NCBI GenBank assembly: GCA_023142995.1
Contig: JAGLIM010000006.1
Span: 32,577 to 96,576 of the forward strand
DNA: 64,000 bases
DNA from: Minisyncoccota bacterium
GTDB lineage: Bacteria; Patescibacteriota; Minisyncoccia; JAHIHE01; JAGLIN01
Reading direction: 5' to 3'
The translations under genes were made by a program, and so were the position numbers. Of the stretch, positions 4,888 to 63,422 are shown in pieces. Numbering within the stretch: the first letter of the stretch is position 1; each line of letters opens with the position of its first letter. A model generated the notes under the pieces. That model was not told the origin of the DNA. It did no database searches and was given only the letters and a program-made list of their open reading frames with translations.

Positions 4888-5045
4888 TAAATAATAATAT
4901 TTTTCGACCTTGTGGAGAAATTTATTGCGCATGGTTTTCTATAAAGTTGAACAATATTGTTAAATAATAATATTTTTCAAGCGGAGTGATAGCGTATTTG
5001 AGACAGTTCATTGCGCATGGTTCTCCATAAAGTCGAACAATATTA
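4888..5045 (+). repeat. Two tandem copies of a roughly 70-bp palindromic 5'-UTR element (TCGACCTTGTGGAGAA...TTCTCCATAAAGTCGAACAATATT).
   Basis: Copy 1 is at 4888-4959 and the variant copy 2 is at 4962-5045. The same element recurs at 9889-9968, 10979-11058 and 20387-20458, always in + orientation upstream of a + gene. Confidence 0.7.
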
Positions 5046-5085
5046 AAATGTACTAATTAATTTTTAATCATAATATTTCAAAAAA

Positions 5086-8859: not shown

Positions 8860-9783
8860 ATGATAAAAGTTGAAAATCTTGTGAAAAAATATGGAGAACT
8901 TGTTGCCTTAGATGGAGTTTCTTTTGAATTGAAGGAAGGTGAGATTGTTGGTATTCTTGGACCAAATGGAGCTGGAAAAACAACACTTCTTAGAATACTG
9001 GTTGCTTTTTTGCAAGCTGATTCTGGCAAAGTTGAAATTGATGGGCTTGATATAAATCAACCGTTATTAGAGCAAAAGGTCAAAGGGAAAATCGGTTATC
9101 TTCCAGAAAGTGCTCCTTTATATGATGATATGACCGTTTCTGAATATTTGATCTTTGTCGGTAAAATGCAGGGAATCGGGTCAGATGACATTTATGAAAA
9201 GCTTGCTGAAGTGGTTGAAAAATGCGGATTAAAAGAAAAGAAAAACGCGGAGATATCAACTCTATCAAAAGGATATAGGCAGAGAGTCGGAATCGCGCAA
9301 GCTCTTATTCATAATCCAAAAATTGTGATTCTGGATGAGCCAACAACAGGATTGGATCCAAATCAAAGAATTCAGATCAGAGATCTTATAAAAGAAATAG
9401 GAAGATCAAAAACCGTGATTTTGTCTAGCCATGTTCTTTCTGAAGTTCAGTCTACTTGCTCGCGTGTTATTATTATTAATAAAGGAAAAATTGTGGCCGA
9501 TGGAACGCCTGAAGAACTTGAAAATAAAGGTGGTAAAAACAAAGCTACTATTCATATTGAAGTTGAAGAAATTAGAGGAAATTTGCTACCGCGTCTTGAA
9601 GCTATTGAAGGTGTTCATAATATGGAAGTTATTGAAAGTAAAATTATCATTATCTCTGATGCAGAAAATGACATTAGAAAAGATATTGCCAGAATTATTA
9701 TTGAAGAAGATCACGGACTTTTAGAACTTGTCAGAAAACAAATTGATCTAGAAGATGTGTTTATAGATCTGACGAAGGAGTAG
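8860..9783 (+). CDS. ABC transporter ATP-binding protein (GldA-like, ABC-2 type).
   Basis: Walker A GPNGAGKTT. ABC signature LSKGYRQRVGIAQAL. Walker B ILDEPTTGLD. Confidence 0.9.
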   Translation: MIKVENLVKKYGELVALDGVSFELKEGEIVGILGPNGAGKTTLLRILVAFLQADSGKVEIDGLDINQPLLEQKVKGKIGYLPESAPLYDDMTVSEYLIFVGKMQGIGSDDIYEKLAEVVEKCGLKEKKNAEISTLSKGYRQRVGIAQALIHNPKIVILDEPTTGLDPNQRIQIRDLIKEIGRSKTVILSSHVLSEVQSTCSRVIIINKGKIVADGTPEELENKGGKNKATIHIEVEEIRGNLLPRLEAIEGVHNMEVIESKIIIISDAENDIRKDIARIIIEEDHGLLELVRKQIDLEDVFIDLTKE

Positions 9784-9800
9784 GTCATGAATATTTGATA

Positions 9801-10076
9801 TTGTCATTCTGAACTCGGTTCAGAATCTATCATCTCTTACATTTAAGCAAATCTATAAATCACAAAATTTTTGAACAAGTTGAAAACACAATAATCTTTT
9901 AATATTTTTCGACCTTGTGGAGAAATTTATTGCGTGGAGTTCTCCATAAAGTCGAACAATATTATTGTGTTTAACTGAAAAAGAGAGTATAGGGTTAATA
10001 GCACAAATTAAAACCTAAAATACAAAAGATTCTGAACTAAGCTTGTCCTTAGCTTGCCGAATGGATTCAGGACAAA
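9801..10076 (+). mobile_element. MITE-like non-coding element, copy A. It has a TTGTCATTCTGAAC terminal hairpin and an internal palindromic core, with a degenerate 3' terminal inverted repeat.
   Basis: It is roughly 80% identical over about 280 bp to 20263-20544. The 5' end reads TTGTCATTCTGAACtcggTTCAGAATC. It carries the 70-bp palindromic element at 9889-9968. Confidence 0.45.
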
Positions 10077-10112
10077 CTGCTGTGCAGTTTATAATTTAAA
10101 TATAAAACCCCA

Positions 10113-10829
10113 ATGAATAAAACTTTAATTATCGCAAAAAAAGAACTGAATTCATATTTCAATTCTCCTCTCGGATATATAGTTATTTCCGTGTTTCTTG
10201 TAATTTCTGGATGGCTTTTTATCCAGACATTTTTTATAGTTGGACAAGCAACACTCCGATCTTTTTTTAATCTTTTGCCGATTTTGTTTATGTTTATTAT
10301 TCCAGCTATCACGATGTCTTCTTGGGCTGAAGAAAAAAGAAGTGGGACTGTTGAAGTTTTGATGAGTTTTCCTGTATCTTCTCTAAAAGTGGTTTTGGCA
10401 AAGTTTCTTTCAAGTTTTGTGTTTCTTTTGATAATGCTTATTTTAACATTGGCAATTTCAATAATGGTTTCTAATGTGGGTTCTCCAGATGGAGGAATTA
10501 TTATTGCAGGTTATATTGGAGCGATCTTTCTAGGTTCTGCTTATATTGCTATCGGGCTTTGGATATCTTCAATAACAAAAAATCAGATCATTTCTTTTCT
10601 TGTTACTGTCTCAATTATATTTATATTTTATATGATAGGGAATTCTCTTATTCTTGATACAATGCCGAGTAGTGTAGCAGCAGTTGGAAACTTTTTAAGT
10701 TTTTCGACTCATTTTGATTCAATTCTGCGAGGAGTAATTTCGCTTTCTGATATTTTATATTATATTTCTGTTATTGCATTCTTTCTATTTTTAAATGCGA
10801 GAACTATAGGAATGAGAAAGTGGAAGTGA
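10113..10829 (+). CDS. ABC-2 family transporter permease (GldF-like).
   Basis: Six predicted TM helices. It is the genomic partner of the upstream ABC ATPase. Confidence 0.7.
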   Translation: MNKTLIIAKKELNSYFNSPLGYIVISVFLVISGWLFIQTFFIVGQATLRSFFNLLPILFMFIIPAITMSSWAEEKRSGTVEVLMSFPVSSLKVVLAKFLSSFVFLLIMLILTLAISIMVSNVGSPDGGIIIAGYIGAIFLGSAYIAIGLWISSITKNQIISFLVTVSIIFIFYMIGNSLILDTMPSSVAAVGNFLSFSTHFDSILRGVISLSDILYYISVIAFFLFLNARTIGMRKWK

Positions 10830-10978
10830 AGTTAGCTTTTTAGGATTTAGCTTCTTAGATTGTAGGCTCTAAGTAAATTGTTGAGATTTTAATTGTCGGA
10901 TAGATAAAAACAAAAGGTTCAAGTCAGAGACATTGAACTAACAGAAATTTTAACAATTCTGTTATAAATTGTTGGTTC

Positions 10979-11058
10979 AATAATCTTTTAATATTTTTCG
11001 ACCTTGTGGAGAAATTTATTGCGTAAAGTTCTCCATAAAGTCGAATAATATTATTGTT
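10979..11058 (+). repeat. Palindromic 5'-UTR element, copy 4.
   Basis: AATAATCTTTTAATATTTTTCGACCTTGTGGAGAAATTTATTGCGTAAAGTTCTCCATAAAGTCGAATAATATTATTG. Confidence 0.7.
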
Positions 11059-11080
11059 TCCAGATTTCTCAATCGCTAAA

Positions 11081-12640
11081 ATGAAACTTATGTCAACCCC
11101 AATAAATAAAAAGATTCTAAACTCTGGAATAAGCTCAGTCTTGATTTTCTTAGCATTTCTAATCGCTATTAATTTTTTGGCATCGCAAAATCCTGTGTAT
11201 TTCGATCTGACAGAAGAAAAGATATATACGACATCAGATGCGTCAAAAGATATTCTGAAAAACTTAGAAAGTGAAGTTAATGTTAATTTTTATATTTCCA
11301 AAGATCTTCCACAAAGTGTGACTAGTACAAAAATGCAACTTGTTGATCTTATGAATCAGTATCAGGATGTTACTGGATCAAAATTAAAAGTTTTTTATAA
11401 TGAGCCAGAAAATACTCCTGAAAAAGTGCAGGAACTTGCGGAGATTGGTATTCCTCAGATTCAATTTAATGTGATTGAAAAAGATAAATATGAAGTAAGA
11501 CAGGGATTTTTTGGAGTGGAAATAACTTCAGAGATCAATGGAGAAATAAAAAGAGAAGCAATTCCAGTTATTCAGTCTATTGATAGTTGGGAATATGATT
11601 TTATTTCTGCTGTTTATTCAATTTCAAGAGAGAATGAAGAAACCGTTGCTTTCTTGAAGGGACATTTTGAAAGAAATATTCAACTTCAGGATTTGCAAAA
11701 ATCTTACAAAATCGTGGATGTTGAGATAGAAACTGAAGAAGAGAATAAAGGGTTTTTTATCTCAGACGGTAAAGCAGAAGAAACAAGTGAGATAGAAAAT
11801 GAAAAAGAATTTGTATATCCTGTGACTTTGATTATTATCGGTCCAGTAGAAAAAATATCAACTGAAGAGATTGCGATTATTGATGAATTTATTTCTAATG
11901 GAGGAAATGTTATTGTTGCATCTGAAAGTGTTGCTCCTGATCTTCAACAAAATTTAAGTCCAATTCCTATTGAAAATAATATAAACGAACTTACAGAAAA
12001 ATATGGCATTAAGATCAATTCTGATTTGATCTATGATAGATCCAATTCTAATATAACTTATCAGCAAGGGTTTTTCTCTGTTAGCAAGGCATATCCTTTT
12101 TGGGTGAAAGCTTTACAGGACAATTTTCAAGAACATCCTTCTCTTTCTGGTATTCAGTCAGTTGTATTTCCATGGGCCTCTTCCTTATCTATTTCTGATA
12201 ATGAAGAATATTGCGTAAAATCAATGATAAGCTCAACAAATCAGGCAAAGGGTATGTCAGATAATTATGATCTATTACCTGATAGTACGTTTTCTTTCTC
12301 TGGAGGATCTAAGAAGACAATTGTTGCTTTTGCTGAGCCAAAAGATGAAAATTCAAATAAAGGAACATTGTTTGTTATTGGTGATTCAGACTTTATATCT
12401 CCTGAATTTTTGAAACAGGCTTCTAACAATGAAACATTTTTTATGAATCTTGTTGACTCTGTTTCAAATTCAGTAAATTTGGCGTCAATTCGATCTAAAA
12501 ATATTATTGACAGACCATTGAAAGAACTCGAAGAGTCTGAAAAGAACTATTGGAAGTTTATCTCGATCTTTGGTGCTGCTATTCTAATCAATATTTATGG
12601 AATACTTAGAATCACTAAAAGGAAGAAAATAAATAAATAA
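11081..12640 (+). CDS. GldG-like auxiliary component of an ABC-type transport system. This is an N- and C-terminally TM-anchored periplasmic protein.
   Basis: The start is taken at the first ATG (MKLMSTP), because the longer ORF begins with TTG inside the repeat. There is a TM helix near each end. The size and topology match the GldG/ABC-type uncharacterised transport auxiliary family. The gene order is ATPase, then permease, then this gene. Confidence 0.55.
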   Translation: MKLMSTPINKKILNSGISSVLIFLAFLIAINFLASQNPVYFDLTEEKIYTTSDASKDILKNLESEVNVNFYISKDLPQSVTSTKMQLVDLMNQYQDVTGSKLKVFYNEPENTPEKVQELAEIGIPQIQFNVIEKDKYEVRQGFFGVEITSEINGEIKREAIPVIQSIDSWEYDFISAVYSISRENEETVAFLKGHFERNIQLQDLQKSYKIVDVEIETEEENKGFFISDGKAEETSEIENEKEFVYPVTLIIIGPVEKISTEEIAIIDEFISNGGNVIVASESVAPDLQQNLSPIPIENNINELTEKYGIKINSDLIYDRSNSNITYQQGFFSVSKAYPFWVKALQDNFQEHPSLSGIQSVVFPWASSLSISDNEEYCVKSMISSTNQAKGMSDNYDLLPDSTFSFSGGSKKTIVAFAEPKDENSNKGTLFVIGDSDFISPEFLKQASNNETFFMNLVDSVSNSVNLASIRSKNIIDRPLKELEESEKNYWKFISIFGAAILINIYGILRITKRKKINK

Positions 12641-12683
12641 AATTATATTGTTATATTGTCAATTTTGAATCGTTGGCTCTATG

Positions 12684-12746
12684 TGGCGATTCCCCTCTTG
12701 CATGCCCGCCTTGGGAGGGAGAGGGTTGGGGGTGTGTTAATGTGAA
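12684..12746. repeat. Copy of the palindromic 'CCCCTCT...GCCCGCCTTGGGAGGG...AGAGGGTTGGGGGTGTGTT' element (module B).
   Basis: It shares the GYCCGCCTTGGGAGGG core with 23800-23816, 58110-58127 and (reversed) 54586-54603. It also shares AACACACCCC...CCCCTCT with 45120-45170, 55290-55330 and 55985-56030. Confidence 0.5.
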
Positions 12747-12949
12747 TTGAGGAAAAACAGTTATTATACAAAAGTGGGTTTATAACCCGCTGTTTTTGTT
12801 TTGAAATTTCTGTTATCGTATTTTTCTTATTTTTAAATGTAAGAGTTGTTAGTATGAAAAGTTGGTAGCAATTGTTTTTTAAACAAAAAAAGAAGGCGAA
12901 TCAAGTTACAACTTTTGCTGAAACTGATGCCTCATATTGTTATCTTCTA

Positions 12950-13225
12950 CTATTCTCCTGGAATATCAAAGATTATTTCGTTACTCATTTCCATAACAGG
13001 GTTATAAACTCCTTTGAGAATATTCCCATTATGATCGACTAACTTTTCTTTGATAAGCACTTCTTGTGCTTCTTTTGAAATTTTATAGCTGTTGTTTAAA
13101 CATTTTACAACAAGCTCAGAAAATATTCCGAAAGTAAGTCTGCCCCTTCTGATAGCAACTTCTATCATCATAGTTCCTATCGTATCTCGTCCAGATAATT
13201 TCTTTTTCATTTGTCTTATCTCCAT
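12950..13225 (-). CDS. Hypothetical 91-aa protein.
   Basis: The ORF sits just outside the IS left end. I see no recognisable motif. Confidence 0.3.
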   Translation of the reverse strand: MEIRQMKKKLSGRDTIGTMMIEVAIRRGRLTFGIFSELVVKCLNNSYKISKEAQEVLIKEKLVDHNGNILKGVYNPVMEMSNEIIFDIPGE

Positions 13226-13286
13226 ATAATCTAACTATTTATCTTATCATAAGACGAAACTTATGTCAATTCCAATAATCAAAATT

Positions 13287-14759
13287 GTCAGCCCCAAATG
13301 ATAATGTCATAGTAGTCCCTAATAGAAATGTCATACCTAGATATTTTGTGCCATAATTGATTTGTTAACTAATTTACAAATCAAACATGATACAAAAAGA
13401 AAAGGAACTAATAGTTATGACTCAAAAAGAATTATTAAGATATGATGTTATCAAGAAGCTAATAGAACAAAAAATTAATGGAACAGAAGCTTCAATTCAA
13501 ATGAATTTATCAATCAGACAAACAAAGAGACTAAAAGTAAGAGTTAAGAAATATGGAATAAAAGGAATAATTCATTGTAATAGGAATAAAGAAAGTAATA
13601 GAAAAATTAAAGCTAAAACTGTTAAAAAGATAAAAAAACATCTTAAAGAGAAATATTATGATTTCGGTCCTACTTTTGCTAAGGAAAAGTTAGAAGAGCT
13701 TCATAATATAGAAATAGGAGTAGAAACATTAAGACAACTGATGATCGTAGAAGGATTATGGAAAGCAAAACCAAAAAGAAAGAACGTTCAGCATAAGTCT
13801 TGGCGAGCTAGAAAAGAATATTTCGGTGAAATGGAACAGTTTGACGGATCATATCATATTTGGTTTGGAAAAAAAGAATCTTGTTTGCTTTTAGCAATTG
13901 ATGATGCCACGGGAAGAATAACTTATGCTAAATTTGATTACAACGAAAGTACAATAGCAGTTTTTAGATTCTGGCTAGAATATTTTAAAAAGAATGGTTT
14001 GCCAATTTCAATCTATCTTGATAAATTCAGTACCTACAAGATAAATCATCCTAATGCGGTTGATAATAAGGATCTAATGACTCAATTTCAAAGAGCGATG
14101 AATCAAGTCAGTATTAAGCCTATCACAGCTCACAGTCCAGAAGCTAAAGGAAGAGTCGAAAGAATGTTCGCAACCTTGCAGGACAGATTATTAAAAGAAT
14201 TAAGACTAGCTGGAGTAAAAACAATTTCTGAAGCTAATAAGTTTTTACAAGAATATATTCCAAAATTTAATGCTAAGTTTGAGGTTATACCAGCAAAAAA
14301 CAAGGATATACATAAAGAAATAAATCAAAGATTAGAAGAAAAACTTCCTCAGATCTTTTCTGTTCAGAATGAAAGAAAAGTACATAATGATTATACAGTG
14401 ATGTTTGAAACTCAATACTTTCAGCTAGAACAAGAACAGCCGATAACAGTTTATAAGAAAGATTCTGTAATTATTGAAAAACATTTAGACGGTGTTATTA
14501 AAATCAATCTAAAAGAACATTATTTGAATTACAGAGTATTACCATCACGACCTCAAAAGCAAATTAATATTAAATTACCAGCTCTAACTAAAAGAAAACA
14601 ATCTGACTGGAAACCACCAATTAATCATCCATGGAGAAGAAACTTATGCTTTTCTGATAATTTAAAAGTTAAAAAGATAAAAACTTAATTAATCTAAATT
14701 AGCGAAGTATGACATTTCTACTTTGGAGAAAGGTATGACATTTCTACTTGGGGTTGACA
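13287..14759 (+). mobile_element. Insertion sequence of about 1.47 kb, ISNCY/IS481-like, with imperfect terminal inverted repeats and a 16-17 bp flanking direct repeat.
   Basis: Left inverted repeat: TGTCAGCCCCAAATGATAATGTCATAG...TAGAAATGTCATACC. Right inverted repeat, reverse-complemented: TGTCAACCCCAAGTAGAAATGTCATACC. The direct repeat TTCCAATAATCAAAATT flanks both ends at 13270-13286 and 14760-14776. Confidence 0.65.
13387..14688 (+). CDS. DDE transposase with an rve integrase core and an N-terminal HTH.
   Basis: The catalytic region contains FDGSYH, LAIDDATG and AHSPEAKGRVER, which has the SPxxxGxVER shape of the rve E motif. The N-terminal HTH is QKELLRYDVIKKLIEQKI. Confidence 0.8.
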   Translation: MIQKEKELIVMTQKELLRYDVIKKLIEQKINGTEASIQMNLSIRQTKRLKVRVKKYGIKGIIHCNRNKESNRKIKAKTVKKIKKHLKEKYYDFGPTFAKEKLEELHNIEIGVETLRQLMIVEGLWKAKPKRKNVQHKSWRARKEYFGEMEQFDGSYHIWFGKKESCLLLAIDDATGRITYAKFDYNESTIAVFRFWLEYFKKNGLPISIYLDKFSTYKINHPNAVDNKDLMTQFQRAMNQVSIKPITAHSPEAKGRVERMFATLQDRLLKELRLAGVKTISEANKFLQEYIPKFNAKFEVIPAKNKDIHKEINQRLEEKLPQIFSVQNERKVHNDYTVMFETQYFQLEQEQPITVYKKDSVIIEKHLDGVIKINLKEHYLNYRVLPSRPQKQINIKLPALTKRKQSDWKPPINHPWRRNLCFSDNLKVKKIKT

Positions 14760-14825
14760 TTCCAATAATCAAAATTCCAATAATCAAAAAAGAGACGAAG
14801 CAGTGTTTTGTGCGTGTTGAGTGTA

Positions 14826-14848
14826 GAGACGTAGCACTGCTACGTCTC
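14826..14848. promoter_or_regulatory. 23-bp perfect palindrome GAGACGTAGCA-C-TGCTACGTCTC. A second copy lies at 42734-42754.
   Basis: The two copies share the roughly 28-bp TGTAGAGACGTAGCA(C/G)TGCTACGTCT. One is upstream of the PKD-protein gene and the other upstream of NlpC/P60. Confidence 0.4.
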
Positions 14849-14975
14849 CACGGCGTTGAAAAAAAGGTAGGGTAAAGGACTCGACAACTATTGAAAATTA
14901 TGAGATAATACACAGTCTAATTCAAAGATATGCTCTTTGACAATTACAAATTAGTAAGAATATTTTAAGGGATAG

Positions 14976-16409
14976 GTGATAAGAATGAACAGTATGAAAT
15001 TAATGATGTTGTTATTTGCAATAAGTATGCTTATTCCGTTTGCATCAGCAAACGACAGTCCTTATGCGAATATCAATAAAGTAGGATCCGCAGAAATTAT
15101 TGATTCTGTGGTCATAAATGTTTGCGAGGAGTTGGTCTTATCTGGAAGACGTTCCTCTGATCCTGATGGCAGTGTAGAAGAGTATCACTGGTATGACGGA
15201 GATAAATTGTTATCAGAAGAGGTGACTCTTATTTTAGAGATCACAGATACTTCCACTAAGAGTATTAAATTAGTGGTAACTGACAATAAGGGAAAGACTG
15301 ATGAGACAATAGTAAAAGTCTATTCCCATTTAACTCCAGATCCAAAAATTAGCCTGAGTAATCCCAATGGGGTTCTTTACCAGACAGACGAATTTATGGT
15401 AATTGCCATAGTTCCAAAAAATGGTAATGAATTTCAAAAATTAGATTTGAAATGGGATTATGATGAAGAGATTGTAAAGAAAGTTAAGGAGAATAAGAGA
15501 ATCCGTAAGGACGGAGAGGAATATCAGTTGACATTCAAGGCATTAAAACCAGGAAATACTAAAATTAGTTTTTCTGGAACAAACCTTTGCGGTGAAACTG
15601 CAGAGGAGGAAGTTAATGTTAAAATCTCGTCTTCTAAATCTCCCAAGATAGAGGAGATAATAATTCCAGAGGGAATTAGAGAAGAAGAAAGATTTGAAAT
15701 TTCAGCTGAAGTTTCAGATTGTAACGGATGTCAATATCTTTTTGAGGTATTCAATTCGGAATATCCAGGATCAGAAGCAATTTCTACTTCTGAAACTGAA
15801 AAGATATGCCTGACATTAGATTACGGTCTCTATCATGTCAATCTGACTGTTAAGAACAAGGAAGGTATTTCAGCTTTTAAGTGGGATACTTTTGAAGTTC
15901 CTAATACGAAGAATGATAAACCTGTCGCAGATGCATCAAAAACTGCAAAGTATGCGGTGATTGACACTGCTTTTACTCTTGATGCATCAAAATCTCGTGA
16001 CGATGGTAAGATTAGCTATTGTCAGTTCTTTTTGTTGAATACAAACATAAATAAATATGAACAGATCTATGAAGGTAATAGTTTGATCTGCGAGTATAGC
16101 TTCACAAGAAGCGGACTACAGAAGCTTTTCGTGCTAGTCAGAGATGACGCTTTTCCATCTCTTGAAAGTAAACCTTATCCTTTTCAGGTCATAGTTGTGG
16201 ACTCTGAAAAGCAGAAGAAGAAAGTAGTTAAAACAGAAGAAGTCAAGAAACAACCAAAAGTAGTAATTCCCTATCAACCTCCGAGTGAAGAGGAGTTGAA
16301 GGATAGGAGAAATAAAGAATTGGCAAGAATATATTTGCCAGGATTTGAATTTCCATTAACTTTTCTTGTTATAATAATCATAGCAAGAAAGAGTCGCAGA
16401 GATCTATAA
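14976..16409 (+). CDS. Secreted PKD-domain protein with a C-terminal 'PGF + TM + basic' anchor.
   Basis: Signal peptide. PKD-like repeats such as SDPDGSVEEYHWYDGD...KLVVTDNKGKTDE. The C-terminus reads LPGFEFPLTFLVIIIIARKSRRDL. Confidence 0.6.
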   Translation: MIRMNSMKLMMLLFAISMLIPFASANDSPYANINKVGSAEIIDSVVINVCEELVLSGRRSSDPDGSVEEYHWYDGDKLLSEEVTLILEITDTSTKSIKLVVTDNKGKTDETIVKVYSHLTPDPKISLSNPNGVLYQTDEFMVIAIVPKNGNEFQKLDLKWDYDEEIVKKVKENKRIRKDGEEYQLTFKALKPGNTKISFSGTNLCGETAEEEVNVKISSSKSPKIEEIIIPEGIREEERFEISAEVSDCNGCQYLFEVFNSEYPGSEAISTSETEKICLTLDYGLYHVNLTVKNKEGISAFKWDTFEVPNTKNDKPVADASKTAKYAVIDTAFTLDASKSRDDGKISYCQFFLLNTNINKYEQIYEGNSLICEYSFTRSGLQKLFVLVRDDAFPSLESKPYPFQVIVVDSEKQKKKVVKTEEVKKQPKVVIPYQPPSEEELKDRRNKELARIYLPGFEFPLTFLVIIIIARKSRRDL

Positions 16410-16576
16410 CTATATAATTATAGATCCGAGCGGCTATTTTTTTGCTATAGTTGTATTTATTTTGACAAAAAATTTCTTTATGTTAATATCAACCCAAGTT
16501 CTTTAATAATTTATCGTGGTATTGCAAAACAAAATAAAATAAAATAAAGAATATAAAGACAAAGGTTGGTGAAATT

Positions 16577-18364
16577 ATGACATTGGAAGTTGAATATGAT
16601 GGAACTGAGAATGAAATATCTATAACTATAGATTATTTTGAAAGTGAAATTACAATAAATAAGAACAGTAGTAATGGAGATAAACCTGAGATTTACACGT
16701 TTGAAATAGACAATATTGTCAATATTAAAACAATTGGTGCGGATCATAATTTTCATTTTAGGGTTGAATCTAATGGAAATTCTGATGATAGTTTAAGAGA
16801 CAGTGTTGAGGAAACTGAAGAAGAAACTGTCAGTGATGATGTTTCGGCAGAAGCTGAATCAGAAACTATCGGTGATGGTACTTCGGCAGAAGTTGAATCA
16901 GAGATTATTAGTAATGATGTTCCGATAGAAGCTGAAATAGAGATCGTTCAAGATAGTGATCCAGTTGATAATCAGACATCTGATGATGGCGTTGAAGCTA
17001 TAGAAACCGATCCTAATTCTGAATCTGATCAGCCTTCGGTTGAAGAGATCAGAGAAAAGGATTTAGACTTTGTTTTTTTGACAAAGAATGGGATAAGAAT
17101 ATTAGCTGTTCTTCTTAGAAAGATGGAACTAAAAAGAGATGAGATAAATGTGACAGATGTTCCTAGCTCAAACGTTTCAAATGCTCTTAAGGAATTAGAG
17201 GAGTCTAATCTGATCTGTTATGAGAATAATAGAAGGCTCATCAAGCCTAATCTTGAGAAAGTTTCAATTTCTTGTCTATGGCTCTATGATAGTCAAATTC
17301 AGAAAATAGTAAATTCAGAATTTGATTTTAGATTTGGAAGATCTGTACAGAATATTCTGCACTTGCTATACAATTATCCAGATGGTTTATACCGGGATGC
17401 AATTACTATTGGTACAAGTCTTAGCAAACCTGTATTTAATAAGGCAATAGTAACAATGGAAAGATATGGGTTGATTGAAGTTACGGGTAAGAGAAATGAA
17501 ACTATCATTTTTCCTAAATTTTCTGCTAATCATGTAGAAAAAGATTCAATAATATCTCAAAAGCCAATTGTTGTTGAGACAGATCTAGCTAATACTGAAG
17601 AGTCAGTAGCTGATTCTGATGCAGATAGAGAAGACTTGTTAACATCACAAAGTCCAACTGCCGTTGAGACAATTTCAGATCAAGAGGTGGTGACAGGAGC
17701 TAAATCAACAGTTGCCATTAATACAGCTGAAGGATTTAATATAAAGAATTTTGAAAGTTACATAAGTATAATTCTTAAAGGTTCTTCTGATGTTAAATTG
17801 CAGACTCTTTCTAGTCGATTTGGAGTTAAGCTAAGAGATGAAGGAATAACCAAATTGTTAAATGCAATTGATAAGAGAATTGCAATTGAAGTTGTGAATG
17901 TTAGGACAGGCAAGATAGTCTCTTGGGAGCCAAAACATTCAAAGGGTATTACTGTATATTTTGAAGGCATTGCTTTTGGGAATCTGGAGGTTAGAAAAAA
18001 AACTGATAATTTAAAGGAGGAAGATTCTGAAAAGCAAGAAATAACTGGTGACATTAAAATAGATGATTTGTCGGAAGAGACAGTTTTGAAGGAGGAAGCA
18101 ATAGAATTAACATCTGAAGATAAAGAAGGTATAAAAAAAGATATAAAAGCAAGAGCTGATAATATGAGAATGGGAGAGCCATTTAAGAATATCTTATATA
18201 TACTGATTGATAATCTTCCCAGTGGTGTGAAACTGAAAGATATTATTGAGGAGGCAGAAAATTATTCAATGCGTAAAGCGCAAATAAAACCATATCTTGA
18301 TATTTTGACAAGACAAGGATTTGTCAGAAAAGAGGTAGGTGAATATAAACTATTAAATGTATAG
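16577..18364 (+). CDS. Acidic protein with three predicted winged-helix-like modules. Function unknown.
   Basis: The N-terminus has D/E-rich tandem 'SAE(A/V)ESE(T/I)I' repeats. There are three segments resembling MarR/TrmB-type wHTH, for example LKDIIEEAENYSMRKAQIKPYLDILTRQGFVRKEVGEYKL. Confidence 0.55.
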   Translation: MTLEVEYDGTENEISITIDYFESEITINKNSSNGDKPEIYTFEIDNIVNIKTIGADHNFHFRVESNGNSDDSLRDSVEETEEETVSDDVSAEAESETIGDGTSAEVESEIISNDVPIEAEIEIVQDSDPVDNQTSDDGVEAIETDPNSESDQPSVEEIREKDLDFVFLTKNGIRILAVLLRKMELKRDEINVTDVPSSNVSNALKELEESNLICYENNRRLIKPNLEKVSISCLWLYDSQIQKIVNSEFDFRFGRSVQNILHLLYNYPDGLYRDAITIGTSLSKPVFNKAIVTMERYGLIEVTGKRNETIIFPKFSANHVEKDSIISQKPIVVETDLANTEESVADSDADREDLLTSQSPTAVETISDQEVVTGAKSTVAINTAEGFNIKNFESYISIILKGSSDVKLQTLSSRFGVKLRDEGITKLLNAIDKRIAIEVVNVRTGKIVSWEPKHSKGITVYFEGIAFGNLEVRKKTDNLKEEDSEKQEITGDIKIDDLSEETVLKEEAIELTSEDKEGIKKDIKARADNMRMGEPFKNILYILIDNLPSGVKLKDIIEEAENYSMRKAQIKPYLDILTRQGFVRKEVGEYKLLNV

Positions 18365-18388
18365 AGGTTCACGCCTCTCTTTTTTTAT
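18364..18388 (+). terminator. Short hairpin plus T7 tract.
   Basis: AGAGGttcacgCCTCT followed by TTTTTTT. Confidence 0.4.
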
Positions 18389-18423
18389 TTGATTTTTGAT
18401 AGTATTCAAGTATAATAAAAAGT

Positions 18424-19557
18424 ATGATAAGTGAAGTAATAATAAGCAGTTTTGTTATAATCGCAGTTTTAGCTGTGCTGTTTTTTCTGTTTAAAAAACC
18501 GATCTCTGATTATTTCACAAGCCTTGGTGAAAAAATGGTGGAGAGAAATTTGAAAATGTTAGAAGGAAGAAACAGAGAGATTCTCAAAGAAGAAAGAGAA
18601 AGAATAAGCGAAATGAATGATGAAAAAATGAAAAGGAATGAGCAATATATGGAAGGTAAAAAAGATGCTATAAAGGAAATGGTGAACAAAATTGACTTAG
18701 AACTTCGAGAATCTCAGAAAAAGATCCAAAACACTGAAAAGGATAGAATCGGAGAATTTGCAAAAATGAAAACGATCTTGCAGGAGCATAAGATTATCAC
18801 AGGAGAATTGAAGGATTCAACTGATAATTTGAAAAAGATACTTTCTAATAATCAACAACGTGGGAAATACGGAGAAGAAGTGGCGGAAAATATTTTGAAA
18901 ATGCTGGGATTTGTGAAAGATTTGGATTATATTGTAAATCTAAGGCAAGAAACAAATGCTAATCGTCCTGATATCACTATAAAATTACCAGATAAAACAA
19001 AGATCAATATAGATGTAAAATTTCCATATTCATCTTTTCAGAAATTTCAGGAAGTTGAAGATAAATTAGAAAAGGAAAAATATTTAGCGCAATTTAAAAT
19101 TGATGTCAAAGAAAAGATCAAGCAGGTGACTAGCCGTGATTATATCAATCCAGAAGAGCAGACGCTTGATTTTGTGATTATGTTTGTTCCTAATGAGAAC
19201 ATTTTTAGTTTTATTTGTGATAAGCTGAGTGATGTTTCAAATGAGGCATTGGAAAAGAAAGTAATTATCACTGGACCATTTTCTTTTGCGGCGATTGCCA
19301 GAATGATCAAACAATCGTATAATAATTTTAAAATTCAAGAAGATCTGCATAGGGTAGTTGGCTTGATCGGAAAATTCAAGCAGGAATTTTCAAAATATAA
19401 TAATGAATTTGATAAGTTAGGAGATAAGATAAATTCAATGTCAAAACAATATGATAGCGTGGCAAACACAAGAACAAGACAATTAACAAAAGTAGTAGAT
19501 CGGATCAATGAAGAAAACGAAGTTATCAATAAAGATGAGAAAAAGAAATTAAAATGA
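18424..19557 (+). CDS. rmuC: DNA recombination protein RmuC family.
   Basis: N-terminal TM, a long coiled coil, and a C-terminal RmuC nuclease-like core NRPDITIKLPDKTKINIDVKFP...DFVIMFVPNENIF. Confidence 0.75.
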   Translation: MISEVIISSFVIIAVLAVLFFLFKKPISDYFTSLGEKMVERNLKMLEGRNREILKEERERISEMNDEKMKRNEQYMEGKKDAIKEMVNKIDLELRESQKKIQNTEKDRIGEFAKMKTILQEHKIITGELKDSTDNLKKILSNNQQRGKYGEEVAENILKMLGFVKDLDYIVNLRQETNANRPDITIKLPDKTKINIDVKFPYSSFQKFQEVEDKLEKEKYLAQFKIDVKEKIKQVTSRDYINPEEQTLDFVIMFVPNENIFSFICDKLSDVSNEALEKKVIITGPFSFAAIARMIKQSYNNFKIQEDLHRVVGLIGKFKQEFSKYNNEFDKLGDKINSMSKQYDSVANTRTRQLTKVVDRINEENEVINKDEKKKLK

Positions 19558-19594
19558 GAAAAAGAAATTAAAAAATGAAAATTAGAAATATTGC

Positions 19595-19709
19595 TGTCAT
19601 TGCGAAAGAGCGATAGCGACTGAAGCAATCACGTAATTAAATTCTTCGTGTATAGTTACGGAATCTTTATCCGCTACTTTATCGTTTTGCTTTATTTCTC
19701 GCAATGACA
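19595..19709. repeat. 115-bp element bounded by the inverted repeat TGTCATTGCGA(A)GA.
   Basis: TGTCATTGCGAAAGA sits at 19595-19609 and its reverse complement TCTCGCAATGACA at 19697-19709. It shares GAGCGATAGC with MITE copy B. Confidence 0.35.
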
Positions 19710-19727
19710 TTTTGTAAAAATACAAGA

Positions 19728-20261
19728 ATGAAAAATTGGGAAACAATAAAATCAAAAACAGCATTCAAATGCAAGTATATGAAAATTCTTGAAGAAGATT
19801 TTGTTATGCCAAGCGGAAAAATACGTAAGTACTATATTCTTAAAAGAAATGATTATGTTATTGTGATTGCGAAAGAAGGGAATTATTTTTATTTAATTGA
19901 GCAATATAGATATACAACAAAATCAAAATTACTTCAAGTTGTTGCTGGGGCAATAGAAAATGGAGAGACACAGCTACAAGCTGCAAAAAAAGAATTAAAA
20001 GAAGAGGCTGGAATAACAGCGAAAAAGTTTAAAAAACTTGGTTGGTTTTATTCTAATTACGGATGTTCTGATCAGAAAGCATATGTTTTTTTGGCAGAAG
20101 ATATAAAACTTGGCGAGCAAATGCCTGATAGTATGGAGAAAGAATGTGGAATCCAAAGAAAGAAATTAAAAATTTCAGAAGTTAAGAAATTAATCAAATC
20201 AGGAAAAATTGAAGACCATGATACATTAGCAGCACTTTGTTTGTTTATGTTAAAGTATTAA
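19728..20261 (+). CDS. NUDIX hydrolase.
   Basis: Nudix box GAIENGETQLQAAKKELKEEAGI (GX5EX7REUXEEXGU). The start is taken at MKNWET. Earlier in-frame ATG codons would overlap the repeat. Confidence 0.8.
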   Translation: MKNWETIKSKTAFKCKYMKILEEDFVMPSGKIRKYYILKRNDYVIVIAKEGNYFYLIEQYRYTTKSKLLQVVAGAIENGETQLQAAKKELKEEAGITAKKFKKLGWFYSNYGCSDQKAYVFLAEDIKLGEQMPDSMEKECGIQRKKLKISEVKKLIKSGKIEDHDTLAALCLFMLKY

Positions 20262-20262
20262 T

Positions 20263-20544
20263 TGTCATTCTGAACCCATTCGGCTATCGCTCAGGGCAGG
20301 CCCGTTTCAGAATCTACTTTTCTTTTATATCTAATTAATCCTACAAATCGCAAAATTTTTGAATAAATTGAAAATGCAATAATCTTTTAATATTTTTCGA
20401 CCTTATTCCGAAATTTACCGCATATAACTTCTCCATAAAGTCGAACAATATTATTGTGTTTATATTGAAAAAGAAAGTACAGTGTAAATAGTATAAATCA
20501 AAACCTAAAATAATAAAGATTCTGAACTAAATTCAGAATGACAA
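20263..20544 (+). mobile_element. MITE-like non-coding element, copy B. It is 282 bp with 13-bp terminal inverted repeats TTGTCATTCTGAA / TTCAGAATGACAA.
   Basis: Perfect terminal inverted repeats at 20263-20275 and 20532-20544. It carries the palindromic element at 20387-20458. It is paralogous to 9801-10076. Confidence 0.5.
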
Positions 20545-23754: not shown

Positions 23755-23780
23755 GAATATTCTTTTTGATATGATCTTTA

Positions 23781-23925
23781 TGTAGAAACTGTTTTGTCTG
23801 TCCGCCTTGGGAGGGTAAATAGTTTCTGATGTTTTCTAAGTAAATAATATTTATTGATATTTCAAAACAAAAAAATAAAAGCAACTTGCGTTATTTTGTA
23901 GAACAAAATATGCTTGTTGCTTTTT
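23781..23925 (+). repeat. 'GCGGGAAC-hairpin-TTTCTGATGTTTTC' element family, copy C1. It contains the GTCCGCCTTGGGAGGG core.
   Basis: It is paralogous to 58089-58245, 58981-59080 and 63423-63556. Confidence 0.45.
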
Positions 23926-30548: not shown

Positions 30549-30704
30549 TCACAGTATTTAGGGATCATACGCAATTTAGTTGTTTTGAATAAATTGGGTC
30601 ATACAAGTTACTGCCCCGTCAGAGTCTCCCGTTAGGGGACTCTGGCGAGAAGACACATTAAGATGATACTTCAAATTTATTCAAAAGTTTTATGATTTAT
30701 AAAT

Positions 30705-33700
30705 TTGATTAGATATATAAAAAAACTAATCTTAACTAATATGAAAAACACAAAAACAAAACTATTCCTCCATCTTTTTATCTCAAGTTTCTTTTTGTTT
30801 GGGCTGGTGGGGGTTAGTGAAGCAGCCGATCACAACTGGTATTTCTCAATGTCAGGCGGTGGAAATGTTTGTTCTCAAGTCTCTCCATGCAAGTGGCTTT
30901 CATCAAACCAAGTCGGATATGTAGCAGGGCAAACAACAGCTCAAAACAAAATTGACAGCGTTGGTTCGGACAAGACTGTTAATTTGTATTTTAAGAGGGG
31001 GGATGTTTGGAGTTTTAATACGGATATGGTATCAACAAAAGTTTATTATGGATTACTTGTTAATAGTGATGATCCGACAGTTAATATAGATACTTATGGA
31101 TTAGGTGCAAAGCCGATATTTGACGGAACTGTAACAGATTTTAGTAGTGTACCAAATCACGATCATACCATTACCACAGGTCCGTATAAATGGAACAATA
31201 TTTTTCAATTTAATAGAAATGATTGTTCGGTTAAAAACATACATATAAATGGGATTTACGGGCAGGGTATAGTTCTTGGAGATGCGAGTAATGCTACGGA
31301 TAATTTTACTCTTGAAAGTTCTGATATAACTAATTTCGGTAATTGTGCTATTAGGTCAAGCTCAAAGTATGCAACACGAAACACTACTGTTACTAAAAAT
31401 TTGATACACACAGGACAACAGTTACAACTTTATGGTAAATGGCCCATCATGAATTGGGGTGCAGGGATTATGATAACTCCGCTAAACCATTTTCGTACCC
31501 CTTATGGGAATGTTATTAATTATAATGTCGTATATGACATAGCAGGCGAAGGGATTCATGCTTTTGGTACTACTATTGAGCATAACATTGTTGGTGATAC
31601 GGGTTCAGTTGGTATATTTGTTGCGCCTGATGCTGGGGACGCAACAGATACCATTGTTAGATATAACTTGGTTATAATGAGTGACCTTTTATCGTCTGAC
31701 TATGATAATGATGGTGCTATTGCACACGAAGGAATTGGAATCGCAGATGAAGGTTTTGGTGGGAGTAATGTAAATGCAATAGTAAAAGTTTATGGAAATA
31801 TAGTTATAAACCGGCTTAAAGGTATATTCTTTGCCGCTTATAATGGGAGCGTGGCACCTTGGAAAGAGATACATATTTATAATAATACCATTATTGATTC
31901 TTCGGGGGCTAATATGGTGATTTCAGAACCAGCCCACGACATGGTTGCTGTTGGAAAAGGGTTTATCTATAACAATACTTCCATTTTATACGATATAACG
32001 GGTAGTATTCATGTGGCAGATTGGAGCGATCCGCCAGCTTTAAGTACATATTGGACAATAGAAAACAATCACTTCTGGACAACAGGAGGATCTCCGACAG
32101 TAGATACAGATTGGCAAACCAACATGATCACCACCGACCCCCAACTTACAGGCGAACCTCTCATAGACTGGGACGGTCAATCAGGACCAACCTATTACAA
32201 AGACATTAAATTCAGCGATGTTATTCCCTTGGCAGGATCATCTCTAATCGGTTCAGGTAAAACGCTTGATGCTAGTTATAATAAAACATTTCTAACTCAA
32301 GGAACTGATTTTAGTGCATTACCTAATTTAACTAATTTCACGCTTTCATCCCAGACAGATGGTTCTTGGGATATAGGAGCGGTGGAGATGGCAGTTCCCG
32401 CCGACCACAACTGGTATTTCTCAATGTCAGGCGGTGGAAATGTTTGTTCCCAAGCGGCTCCCTGCAAATGGCTTTCATCAAACCAAGTCGGATATGTAGC
32501 AGGACAAACAACTGCTCAAGACAAAATTGACAGTATTGCTTCGGATAAGATAGTTAATTTGTATTTTAAGAGAGGGGATGTTTGGACGGCAGATACATCA
32601 GCGGTAAATAAAATAAATTGTCACGGACTTCTTGTTTCTGCGACTAACCCAATTATAAATATCAACGCATACGGTTCTGGCAATAAACCTGCTTTTGATG
32701 GTTTGGTTTCAGATTTTTCTACTGCTCCTGCTCATAACAGCACGACTGGGCCGTTGTTTTATAACAGATTTTTTGAGTTCAAGCGCAATAGTTGCAGTAT
32801 ATCAAATATAGAAATTAAAAGAGTTTATGGTAATGCTGTATTTTTAAACCCATCTAATTATTTTACGCTTGATTCTTGCAACATACATAACTTTGGCGCT
32901 GGCGGTATTTCAATATCGTCTGCAGTAGGTGGAAATAATATCACAGTTATAAACAACATTTTTCATACTGGACAAGAGCTATATAGATATGGTTTGCGAT
33001 CTGGATGGGAAGCCGCAATTCAATTAACAACAAAAGGTCATTTATGTGAAGATAATGTTATTAGATATAATGTTGTTTATGATATTTATGGAGAAGGAAT
33101 ACAGTGTGTTAATAGTTTATGCGAATATAATATTGTCGGAGATACAGGATCAATTGCTCTTAATACTTCTAATCATGGATGGGATGCTAAAAAAACTACA
33201 GTTAGATATAATATTGTAACGATGTCTGATTGGGGTTCAAGTATTTATGATACATTAAGTGGATCAAGTCCCGTAGGAGTAAGAGTTTATGACGAACATC
33301 CTGGTGGTAACAATTCAGGAGCAGATATACAAATCTATGGTAATATCATAATAAATACAAGGAACGGGATACAGCTTGGTTCACCAGAAGATCCGGGAAA
33401 TCCTTATGGTTCTGTAAAAATATATAATAATACTTTAGTGGACTGCATATCAAATTGGACTTTTTCACAACCGGAGGAATTTAGCAATGTGCATATTTAC
33501 AACAATTCATCTATTCATTATGACAGGACAGGCGCTCATTCTGTAAATTGGGATATAGCTGCCGGATATAGTGGCTGGGTATTTGACTATAACCATTTTT
33601 ATCCTGTCGATGGAAGTAATACAGTACTTCCCATTTTTGCTTCAAATCAAATCACCACCGACCCCAAACTCATTGGCGAACCAACAATAGACTGGGACGG

Positions 33701-42777: not shown

Positions 42778-43791
42778 ATGGATGATAGTGATAAGATAAA
42801 TAATATTATAGAAAATTTAAGAGAACAAGATCAGCAAAATTATGGTGTTGCTGTTTTTGATATTGATTCAAAAATTGTAAAAAACAGTATTGTAGTTTTT
42901 GGAAAAGTTTTAACGTATAGTCAGAAAGATCAAGTCTCAGAATTGGCAAAAAAACAAAAAATAAAAATTACTTCCGACAGAATAAAAGTTTTAAGTGATT
43001 CTAGCAAAAGATATGAAATCAATTGGGCTGTTGTAAAAGACGCAGTGACAGATCTGAAATTGCGATTTGTTTCTAATAGAATAGTAAATGAAAAAATATT
43101 AAAAAGGATCAGATGTTCACAGGCGTTTAAGGGTGAGATCTTGAGAGTTTTATATAAAAATGAAGATCAACTATTAGTCCAGCAGAATGATCTGACATTA
43201 GGATGGGTGGACAGAAAAGATGTGATTTTAAAGAAAATTAGCTCTTCCCATGATAAAGCCTGCCCTGAGCGAGAGTCGAATGGGGGGAGGTTGGGAGGGG
43301 TTAGAAAACGCAGAAAATTAGGTTTATATAAAAAATGGAAGAGCGGCAATTTTGTGATTAAAGGTAAAGTGATAATTGCAAAAAAGTTCCACAGCCCTAG
43401 CGGGACTATGGAACTAACATCTAAAATCATCAGAGAAGCAGAAAAATATATAGGTACAAAATATCTTCTTGGCGGGAAAACTAAAAATGGAATTGATTGT
43501 TCTGGATTAGTTCAAGTCGTTTATAAGAATTCTTTAAATATAATTTTACCAAAACATTCGTGGGATCAAAAAGAGATTGGAGAAAAGTTGAAATTAGAGA
43601 ATATAAAGACTGGTGATCTAGTATTTTTGATAAAAAAAAGCAACAAGCATAAGCATGTTGGAATTGTGAAAAAAAATAAAGATATAAATTTAATTCATGC
43701 TTCATTTGATAAAAAGAAAGTTGTTGAGCAAAACTTAGATAAAGTTTTTGAAAAATACGATTTTGTAGAAGTGAGGAGGATAGTGAAATAG
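42778..43791 (+). CDS. NlpC/P60-family cell-wall peptidase.
   Basis: The catalytic Cys is in GIDCSGLV, His in HVGIV and His in IHAS, in the C-terminal domain. There is a G-rich internal segment ESNGGRLGGV. Confidence 0.8.
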   Translation: MDDSDKINNIIENLREQDQQNYGVAVFDIDSKIVKNSIVVFGKVLTYSQKDQVSELAKKQKIKITSDRIKVLSDSSKRYEINWAVVKDAVTDLKLRFVSNRIVNEKILKRIRCSQAFKGEILRVLYKNEDQLLVQQNDLTLGWVDRKDVILKKISSSHDKACPERESNGGRLGGVRKRRKLGLYKKWKSGNFVIKGKVIIAKKFHSPSGTMELTSKIIREAEKYIGTKYLLGGKTKNGIDCSGLVQVVYKNSLNIILPKHSWDQKEIGEKLKLENIKTGDLVFLIKKSNKHKHVGIVKKNKDINLIHASFDKKKVVEQNLDKVFEKYDFVEVRRIVK

Positions 43792-58053: not shown

Positions 58054-58088
58054 AAATGATGTTTTTATAATAGTTATCTTGTAGGAAT

Positions 58089-58245
58089 TTTTGCGGGAAC
58101 GGATTTGCCTGTCCGCCTTGGGAGGGTAATCCGTTTCTGATGTTTTGAAAATAAGTAAAATTATATTGCAAATTTTATTTTTGTAAAAACGAAAAATGAA
58201 ATTTCAAAACAAAAGGAACTGTTTGTAAAATAGTTCCCACAAAAT
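58089..58245 (+). repeat. 'GCGGGAAC-hairpin' element, copy C2, with GTCCGCCTTGGGAGGG in the hairpin loop.
   Basis: TTGCGGGAACGGATTTGCCTGTCCGCCTTGGGAGGGTAATCCGTTTCTGATGTTTTG...GGAACTGTTTGTAAAATAGTTCC. Confidence 0.45.
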
Positions 58246-62317: not shown

Positions 62318-62347
62318 GTCATTCCTGCGGAGGCAGGAATCCAGTTA
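62318..62347 (+). repeat. 'TGTCATTC + hairpin' unit (TGTCATTCCTGCGGAGGCAGGAATCCAGTT). An inverted partner lies at 63316-63350.
   Basis: The two copies flank the dehydrogenase gene in inverted orientation. Related units follow + gene stops at 9801, 20263 and 22929, and there is another at 63391-63420. Confidence 0.45.
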
Positions 62348-63284: not shown

Positions 63285-63422
63285 AAGATTACGAAAAATA
63301 TCACTTAATTGAGACAAACTGGATTCCCGCCTCCGCGGGAATGACAGGTTTTGTCTTGTGAAGTAAATAATAGATAAAACCAAAAATACAAAAGATCCTG
63401 AGACAAGGATGACAAAATTTTA

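Follow-up and report, generated by a model that had tools for sequence, protein, structure and literature searches.

Two related elements lie between operon genes

The 64,000-nucleotide stretch of Minisyncoccota bacterium DNA analysed here (the window; 31.5% G+C) contains two related intergenic elements, A and B, which an earlier note made from the sequence alone had described as resembling miniature inverted-repeat transposable elements (MITEs). Copy A occupies the spacer between an ABC ATPase gene that ends at 9783 and an ABC-2 permease gene that starts at 10113. Copy B begins directly after the stop codon of a NUDIX gene (20261) and is followed by a gene that begins at 20573. As the note had reported, the genes on both sides of each element are on the plus strand. 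The elements have the following parts:

9801..10075, plus strand: composite copy A, 275 bp, with a left hairpin, a spacer of about 150 bp holding a nested palindrome, and a right hairpin; nhmmer E value 4e-63
9801..9828, plus strand: left hairpin of A, short form, TTGTC ATTCTGAAC tcg GTTCAGAAT CT; DNA fold -6.5 kcal/mol, z -5.1
9889..9968, plus strand: nested palindromic module of A, with arms AATATTTTTCGACCTTGTGGAGAA and TTCTCCATAAAGTCGAACAATATT and a variable loop; DNA fold -18.5 kcal/mol, z -7.2
10028..10075, minus strand: right hairpin of A, inverted, degenerate long form; the 5' stem half lacks ATT and the loop has an insert of about 21-27 nt (CCATTCGGCAAGC...)
20262..20544, plus strand: composite copy B, 283 bp, with perfect 13-bp termini; nhmmer E value 2e-60
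20262..20315, plus strand: left hairpin of B, long form, with a GC-rich loop insert of 26-27 nt (CCATTCGGCTATCGCTCAGGGCAGGCCC)
20377..20457, plus strand: nested palindromic module of B, with the left inner arm variant TTATTCCGAAATTTACCGC; z -2.0
20517..20544, minus strand: right hairpin of B, short form, inverted; DNA fold -5.5 kcal/mol, z -5.0

We confirmed that A and B are genuine repeated elements. Their interiors are 82.9% identical over 228 bp by blastn (82.7% by MAFFT), their likeness ends at the termini and the DNA that flanks them is unrelated. Neither contains an open reading frame (ORF) of 50 or more amino acids. The description in the earlier note held apart from one base in each copy. 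Copy B, given there as 20263-20544, non-coding and with perfect 13-bp terminal inverted repeats, has such termini and no ORF of that length but starts at 20262, one base earlier; copy A, given as 9801-10076 and about 80% identical with a degenerate 3' repeat, does have the degenerate end and 83% identity but stops at 10075, one base shorter. The palindromic element that had been noticed in both copies corresponds to the nested modules listed above.

The ends of A and B are hairpins

The exact 13-mer TTGTCATTCTGAA, which had been taken as the terminal repeat, is present at three sites in the window (9801-9813 and 20262-20274 on the plus strand, 20532-20544 on the minus strand), for which dinucleotide shuffles of the window give an expected exact count of 0.00. 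When two mismatches were allowed, its count in the window showed no excess over chance. The 3' end of copy A, GGATTCAGGACAA, is a degenerate copy of the 13-mer that lacks ATT. The inverted ends are thus real, but the 13-mer is merely the outer half of a hairpin inverted repeat of about 28 nt. Intact terminal hairpins have the form TTGTC-ATTCTGAAY-N3-RTTCAGAAT-CT, and each of the four ends of A and B carries one hairpin with its GTC tail pointing outward. The short form is found at the left end of A and the right end of B, and the long form at the left end of B and the right end of A, where the loop inserts contain a related GC-rich segment of 21-27 nt (CCATTCGGC...). A segment related to the insert at the left end of B is also present at 43258-43284, and long forms comparable to this end flank a GIY-YIG gene in another contig, L041. 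The degenerate right hairpin of A (10028..10075) folds no better than its shuffles (z -0.65). Motifs of the type GTCAT-hairpin-C number six in the window, compared with 0.53 +/- 0.68 expected from 200 dinucleotide shuffles, and about ten hairpins of this class are found in approximately 84 kb of this genome.

The elements belong to a family of composite units

Searching with an nhmmer profile brought the number of full family copies to six, namely A, B and at least four in other metagenomic contigs, which share a scaffold at 70-83% identity. Copies beyond the two in the earlier note thus exist:

L013, 19094-19298: full copy, 205 bp
L078, 12555-12344: full copy, 212 bp
L070, 1890-1643: full copy, 248 bp
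L075, 2011-1836: full copy, 176 bp

Partial copies were found in L024, in L138 and at 10976-11060 of the window. L138 belongs to the same species, as one of its proteins is identical to a window protein, and comes from the assembly of a sister sample. All full copies have two hairpins and an AT-rich, family-specific spacer of about 150 bp. Copies A and B additionally hold an inner palindrome insertion of about 50 bp, a module that is missing from L013, L078 and L075; at the same central position L070 has a different, GC-richer palindrome. The end that carries the long-form hairpin loop also differs among family copies. A short hairpin doublet of 113 bp is found on the same scaffold, 9 kb before the window begins.

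The palindromic module and pieces of the spacer also occur outside complete units:

4889..5047, plus strand: palindromic module as a tandem of a full and a half copy, upstream of the gene at 5086
10978..11057, plus strand: palindromic module without hairpin ends, in the spacer between the permease gene and a gldG-like gene; probably a decayed third family member
30674..30728, minus strand: fragment like the left spacer of the composite (module 2), adjoining a different GTC-hairpin at 30618-30643
63342..63415, plus strand: fragment like the right part of the composite (AAAACCAAAAATACAAAAGAT...), with a weak terminal hairpin, TTGTCATCCTTGTCTCAGGATC, on the minus strand

We found the palindromic module in contigs L007, L008, L014 (a half copy) and L016 as well. 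It spans roughly 50-80 bp and folds strongly (z -6.4 to -7.2), with nearly invariant stems; the copy in B pairs poorly because its left inner arm is a variant. A scan of GTDB representatives for the module yielded two small contigs of metagenome-assembled genomes only, and scans of IMG/VR for the spacer modules and the palindrome yielded nothing except a chance match in a ClpP-like coding sequence. The units are mosaics in which at least three repeat modules, each of which also occurs independently, are combined. At both 4889-5047 and L008 (positions 1-140) the palindromic module forms tandem pairs, and the left half of one member has been replaced. The variant left arm (CCTTRYTCCGAARTT...) is common to copy B and L008, and at least two module subtypes therefore exist.

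Units are gained and lost at fixed sites

Comparison with close relatives showed that A and B have been gained or lost at fixed intergenic sites. Homologues of the ABC-2 permease of the window are labelled Patescibacteria, Paceibacterota or Parcubacteria by their sources, which places the host in the candidate phyla radiation. The A site is empty in L016, whose permease is 94% identical to that of the window and whose flanking DNA is 86-92% identical: 24 bp stand in place of window positions 9780-10088. Similarly, the B site is empty in L014 (permease 87% identical), with 26 bp in place of 20255-20543. The site of the solitary palindrome (10978..11057) is empty in L014 and L015, which have a 37-nt spacer there; L016 has the palindrome, preceded by the end of module 2. 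In other cases the same sites hold partial or different repeats. L014 has only half a palindrome at the A site, and L013 (84%) has at the B site the 205-bp family copy without the inner palindrome, and at the A site a different hairpin-pair repeat with a remnant, TTCTGAAATGACAA. The repeat that occupies the A site in L013 is an inverted pair of GGCTCCATAGTCCCGATAGGGCTGTGGAGCC-type hairpins, a family described below. At 17548-17571, L014 carries an NTS-like hairpin (see below) in a spacer, matched by gene order, where the window has none. The copies of the window and L013 at the same site are 71% identical, no closer than copies at different sites. Syntenic arrays of Neisseria intergenic mosaic elements (NIMEs) behave similarly, with fixed positions and changing content (Bentley et al. 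2007, PMC1797815), and the presence of different or partial repeats at the same sites looks more like NIME recombination turnover than cut-and-paste transposition.

These comparisons bear on two explanations that involve no mobility. The first, local segmental duplication of one intergenic stretch, would suit two copies lying 10.5 kb apart in one window, and the earlier note had named beforehand a duplication limited to these two copies as the outcome that would overturn its reading. The flanks are unrelated, there are more copies in other contexts and metagenomes, and presence and absence vary independently at the two sites. Duplication is refuted by these observations, and we give it practically no weight.

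The second explanation is that the units are host cis-acting elements under selection, such as an intra-operon RNA hairpin, a processing site, a terminator or a promoter cassette. The spacer is 70-83% conserved although ordinary intergenic DNA of the genomes concerned can hardly be aligned, the modules of at least five of seven copies are ordered in the direction of the flanking genes, and the left hairpin often follows directly after a stop codon, all of which a host function would account for. Against this, the element is missing from the corresponding operon junctions of close relatives, and large indels and different nested palindromes are tolerated. The units had no match in Rfam, where gathering and permissive thresholds gave only sub-threshold hits to miRNA-like hairpins. 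RNAalifold, applied to four copies, found only the pairings of the inverted repeats, with a covariation term of +0.94 and no compensatory support. Promoter-like sites inside the elements were not in excess over shuffles, and the three terminator-like matches in 9700-11200 all lie in the permease gene, outside the elements. We consider a selected cis element improbable.

The terminal hairpins resemble targets of SsnA

The ends of A and B resemble a hairpin class known from Neisseria. The Neisseria NTS, CGTCATTCCCGCGMAVGCGGGAATCYRG, contains dRS3; NTSvar is a second hairpin variant, and SRMs are degenerate Ssn-related motifs (PMC11893778). SsnA, a GIY-YIG protein of 94 amino acids, binds hairpins of the NTS class as single-stranded DNA (ssDNA) and cuts a few nucleotides upstream of them; cleavage depends on the three bases 5' of the palindrome, and binding mostly on the C just 3' of it (PMC11893778). 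The terminal hairpins of A and B share with the NTS class the flanks GTCAT...ATC and a stem base of ATTC/GAAT. Because the 5' flank GTCAT, the stem base ATTC...GAAT and the 3' C are the positions critical for SsnA (PMC11893778), the terminal hairpin is best classed as an AT-rich-stem variant of the NTS/dRS3 or SRM class.

Two hairpins near the end of the window are closer to the Neisseria form:

62318..62341, plus strand: NTS-like hairpin with a GC-rich stem, TTGTC ATTCCTGC ggag GCAGGAAT CCAG, of the same family
63322..63345, minus strand: NTS-like hairpin, TGTCATTCCCGCGGAGGCGGGAATCCAG

In a position-by-position comparison, the hairpin at 63322-63345 agrees with the Neisseria NTS consensus (PMC11893778) at 26 of 28 positions. 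It contains the dRS3-type sequence ATTCCCGC-GGAG-GCGGGAAT, which is not present at the ends of A or B. We also observed that these two hairpins, with their tails outward, enclose a 2-hydroxyacid dehydrogenase gene (62379-63284) in an NTS-gene-NTS layout; such a layout lowered transformation in Neisseria (Chenal et al. 2025, PMC11893778).

To describe the distribution of the AT-rich hairpin, we scanned the JGI metagenome collection and IMG/VR with the pattern TTGTCATTCTGAA-N(3-33)-TTCAGAATC. It matched four IMG/VR contigs and at least 120 loci in JGI metagenomes, on unrelated contigs of 23-54% G+C. A GTCAT-hairpin detector reported 241 hairpins among the 120 loci listed, and 52 of 113 neighbouring pairs at these loci had their tails outward, 42 of them with a spacer shorter than 60 bp. 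As tails-outward pairs predominate among neighbouring hairpins, the inverted doublet is the usual unit; the window elements are doublets whose spacer is unusually long. Among the matches listed, the hairpins were mostly intergenic (8 of 112 inside long ORFs), 76 of 112 lay no more than 200 nt downstream of the end of an ORF in either orientation, and the base at +1 after GAATC was T in 81% of copies. A hairpin can also overlap the 3' end of a gene, as at 3598-3609 of L024, where the stop codon TGA lies inside TTGTCATTCTGA.

Four single-domain GIY-YIG ORFs of about 74-99 amino acids occur among the 120 loci listed (Pfam PF01541, E values 3e-9 to 7e-18), and all four are flanked by hairpins on both sides, at loci that had been selected by the hairpin. 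In L041 and L083, the gene is enclosed by a single tails-outward pair. These ORFs are 45-55% identical to a 94-amino-acid GIY-YIG ORF of N. gonorrhoeae (tblastn E values 3e-19 to 3e-29), which we found by tblastn against PLSDB and which has 16 NTS repeats around it within 3.3 kb. The genes found between TTCTGAAY hairpins thus encode SsnA homologues. A GIY-YIG profile search showed the family to be very large and highly conserved, its best matches coming from several phyla with about 80% identity among them; comparison of the ORFs with solved structures and NCBIfam returned merely weak matches to UPF0213 and generic GIY-YIG. One of the four ORFs (L067, 1083-1412) contains an in-frame TAA and is probably a pseudogene, because its homology to SsnA continues beyond this stop. 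L067, a contig of 620 kb, was considered as a Patescibacteria carrier of ssn and was rejected, as its proteins look Bacteroidota-like. A search by motif regular expression found no GIY-YIG ORF in the window, its relatives or the flanks.

Two side observations concern these loci and databases. The GIY-YIG ORFs of L083 (1929-1936) and L067 (about 1415-1425) run into the downstream hairpin. Several PLSDB entries, among them NZ_CP119140.1, NZ_CP119142.1 and NZ_AP026896.1, are "plasmids" of 2-5 Mb that are evidently chromosomes; the mislabelled entries include N. gonorrhoeae (2.17 Mb), the chromosome that yielded the gonococcal ORF above, and Aeromonas caviae (4.9 Mb).

Transposase-driven mobility accounts poorly for the units

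According to the classical MITE explanation, A and B would be internally deleted insertion sequences (ISs) with terminal inverted repeats of 13-28 bp, and a DDE transposase from another part of the genome would move them by cut-and-paste or copy-paste. Consistent with this, the units are small, lack ORFs, have inverted termini, occur as multiple copies in several contexts and are absent from the corresponding sites of relatives. However, MITEs should be flanked by target-site duplications (TSDs), and we observed none in the five copies whose junctions were read, of the six full copies: A, GATA|...|ACTG; B, TTAA|...|ATTG; L013, TTAG|...|TTAA; L078, TTTC|...|CTTT; and L075, CC|...|AAAA. Nor did a duplicated target distinguish filled from empty sites. 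An apparent AAT/AAT duplication at copy B, seen when its ends are read as TGTCA, was not repeated at the other copies checked and was attributed to chance in AT-rich DNA.

The partner that this explanation needs was also not found: no transposase gene with matching IS ends was present in the window, in its relatives or between inverted hairpins among the 120 loci listed, where one 1.2-kb pair encloses small membrane proteins. The IS in the window (13286-14759), which has the ends TGTCAGCCCCAA and TGTCAACCCCAA and a 433-amino-acid ORF with a sub-threshold match to rve_3, is unlikely to be the mobilising partner, as the earlier note had already reasoned from its different ends. Finally, the termini of the units are free-standing hairpins, which unrelated metagenomes contain mostly as single copies or short doublets. 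A strict MITE model fails because TSDs are absent, no transposase with these ends was found and the termini exist independently, and we regard it as no likelier than a selected cis element. The logic of a gene-less element that shares its ends with an autonomous partner survives in modified form, with hairpin-ssn-hairpin rather than an IS as the layout of the partner.

The surroundings of the IS are themselves repetitive. Just upstream of it, 12795-13284 contains sequences (repeats D9 and D15) that resemble the permease gene at its end and the gldG-like gene at its start. TGTCAACCCCAA is also present at the actual start of the gldG-like gene (11091-11102), and an insertion of about 487 bp in L016 (5183-5669) lies exactly there. 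A second ORF of 433 amino acids (55333-56634) was considered as another IS copy and rejected, as it encodes an MFS transporter.

Inverted pairs of hairpins are also the hallmark of REPIN-type doublets, in which inverted hairpins resembling repetitive extragenic palindromes (REPs) are moved as ssDNA by a RAYT, a Y1 transposase like those of IS200/IS605. The predominance of the inverted doublet among hairpin pairs fits this, a whole unit can fold end-to-end, and an absence of TSDs is expected for Y1 transposition. REPs are marked by a GTAG-type motif. By contrast, the conserved 5' flank here is GTCAT, and the only genes seen flanked by hairpins encoded GIY-YIG SsnA homologues (Y1 transposases were not systematically searched for). 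We therefore rate a RAYT-driven origin as very unlikely, somewhat below the MITE explanation.

A and B as probable gene-less counterparts of ssn cassettes

The explanation we favour, and think probable, is that A and B, in what is a Paceibacterota genome, are NIME-like intergenic mosaic units bounded by Ssn motifs and the non-autonomous counterparts of cassettes of the hairpin-ssn-hairpin type. The window elements would be gene-less counterparts because the same tails-outward hairpin brackets ssn genes in other organisms. A NIME consists of dRS3-RS-dRS3, in which dRS3 is ATTCCC-N8-GGGAAT, and is stated not to occur outside Neisseria (PMC1797815). In their arrangement of modules, A and B appear to be the structural equivalent of this unit, and they resemble NIMEs more than transposase-driven MITEs.

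A possible mechanism follows from the published biochemistry of SsnA and from the pattern of gain, loss and mosaicism seen here. The hairpins would extrude in ssDNA during replication, repair or DNA uptake; ssDNA carrying the hairpin TTGTCATTCTGAACTCGGTTCAGAATCT is the predicted substrate for binding and cleavage by cognate Ssn homologues. An Ssn-type nuclease would nick the two hairpins at their outer edges, one on each strand; with other hairpin copies as template, repair or recombination would then add, remove or swap the sequence between the hairpins. Such nick-plus-recombination would explain the gain and loss of units at fixed sites, the absence of TSDs and the nesting of modules. The inference we draw is twofold: the copies in this genome would be acted on by an Ssn, and the units would spread in this way.

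Several observations weigh against NIME-like units turned over by Ssn. The published SRM expression, HGTCWYN(0-2)YYVSBRHN(0-5)WNVSBRGN(0-2)RNCYNB, has no match in the window. On manual checking, the AT-rich TTCTGAAY stem fails its V/S positions, which require G or C, and the two hairpins with GC-rich stems (62318 and 63345) each depart from it at one position. Because the expression finds none of them, the window hairpin is a variant rather than a textbook SRM member. We detected no ssn homologue (tblastn E value of at most 1) in the approximately 84 kb of this genome that is readable or in about 45 kb from close relatives. The nested palindrome occupies one and the same position in A and B, as expected if the unit was copied whole; L013, however, has at the B site a copy without the palindrome, and the GC-rich loop inserts are at opposite ends in A and B, so that the history needs extra events. 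The units are single and do not form long arrays as NIMEs do. Finally, on mobilisation of hairpins by Ssn, PMC11893778 goes no further than an IS-like analogy, in noting that NTS-ssnA-NTS resembles an IS (Chenal et al.).

A bolder version takes that analogy literally: the units (176-283 bp) would be transposable elements in the true sense, non-autonomous and moved in trans by a GIY-YIG single-strand nuclease of the Ssn type, and hairpin-ssn-hairpin cassettes would be an unrecognised class of prokaryotic transposons with MITE-like derivatives, active in reduced genomes of the candidate phyla radiation (CPR). We think this unlikely, if less so than a cis-acting element or a classical MITE.

Other repeats in the window

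Short repeat families make up a large share of the intergenic DNA of the window, a surprising feature in a reduced CPR genome. Besides the units described above, we noted the following:

54507-54582, 55928-56003 and 43376-43422: GC-rich hairpin repeat family (GGCTCCATAGTCCCGATAGGGCTGTGGAGCC and relatives), also at L013 9913-9959 and L014 12410-12542
14822-14847 and 42729-42754: near-identical REP-like palindromes starting with GTAG (TGTAGAGACGTAGCACTGCTACGTCT)
23777-23869, 58088-58162 and 58997-59051: two to three copies of an intergenic repeat (GTCTGTCCGCCTTGGGAGGGTAAA..., then an AT-rich tail)
45114-45189, 54606-54643 and 55971-56046: repeat with the palindrome CCCCTCTCAAGAGGGG, beside GGCTCC-type hairpins
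30825-34000: direct repeats D1 (32127/33651) and D3 (30825/32400), 86-91% identical, within an ORF of 1,247 amino acids (30705-34448)

The palindrome TGTAGAGACGTAGCACTGCTACGTCT may belong to a RAYT system as a classical REP. The direct repeats D1 and D3 point to a large surface-type protein with repeated domains.

Significance and comparison with known systems

The hairpin class and its nuclease (2025) and NIMEs (2000-2007), which were thought to be specific to Neisseria, were known already. What is new here is a hairpin variant with an AT-rich stem, which escapes the published motif, a family with a conserved spacer of about 150 bp in NIME-like units of Patescibacteria, and clear pairs of filled and empty sites. 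The motif variant is common in metagenomes. Patescibacteria have small genomes that are generally regarded as streamlined, and in the relatives compared here such units come and go at operon junctions. The filled and empty sites, together with pairs of hairpin-ssn-hairpin and hairpin-spacer-hairpin layouts, are material with which the mobility of Ssn cassettes can be tested. For annotation, they counsel caution: terminal inverted repeats without an ORF need not imply a transposase-driven MITE.

Among known systems, the NTS/SRM class (PMC11893778) has the same 5' GTCAT, the same ATTC...GAAT start of the stem and the same C directly 3' of it, and is likewise intergenic, high in copy number and found flanking single-domain GIY-YIG genes of about 95 codons. 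It differs from the window elements, whose terminal hairpins have the AT-rich stem TTCTGAAY and whose host belongs to the Patescibacteria, a group without mention in the main text of PMC11893778; composite units with a conserved 150-bp spacer are not described there.

Bacterial MITEs such as the Correia elements of Neisseria are similarly small, non-coding, multi-copy and intergenic, with inverted termini and variable presence. They differ in that the units here have no TSD and no related IS or transposase, that their termini are independent hairpins and that their candidate partner is a GIY-YIG nuclease. REPINs and BIMEs with their RAYTs are also built from inverted doublets of short extragenic palindromes as the repeated unit, form mosaics with other motifs and include a small 'domesticated' gene flanked by repeats; the flank (GTCAT here) and the class of enzyme (GIY-YIG compared with HUH/Y1) are different, and the spacer here is longer and conserved.

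NIMEs have the same type of hairpin inverted repeats around AT-richer RS spacers (19-214 bp in Neisseria, compared with about 150-225 bp here), the same nesting of other repeats and the same fixed intergenic positions with content that varies between relatives. The units described here differ from them in phylum and in the hairpin stem, as their ends are ATTCTGAAY-N3-RTTCAGAAT and not dRS3, and they were seen singly or paired as short doublets, with no long arrays.

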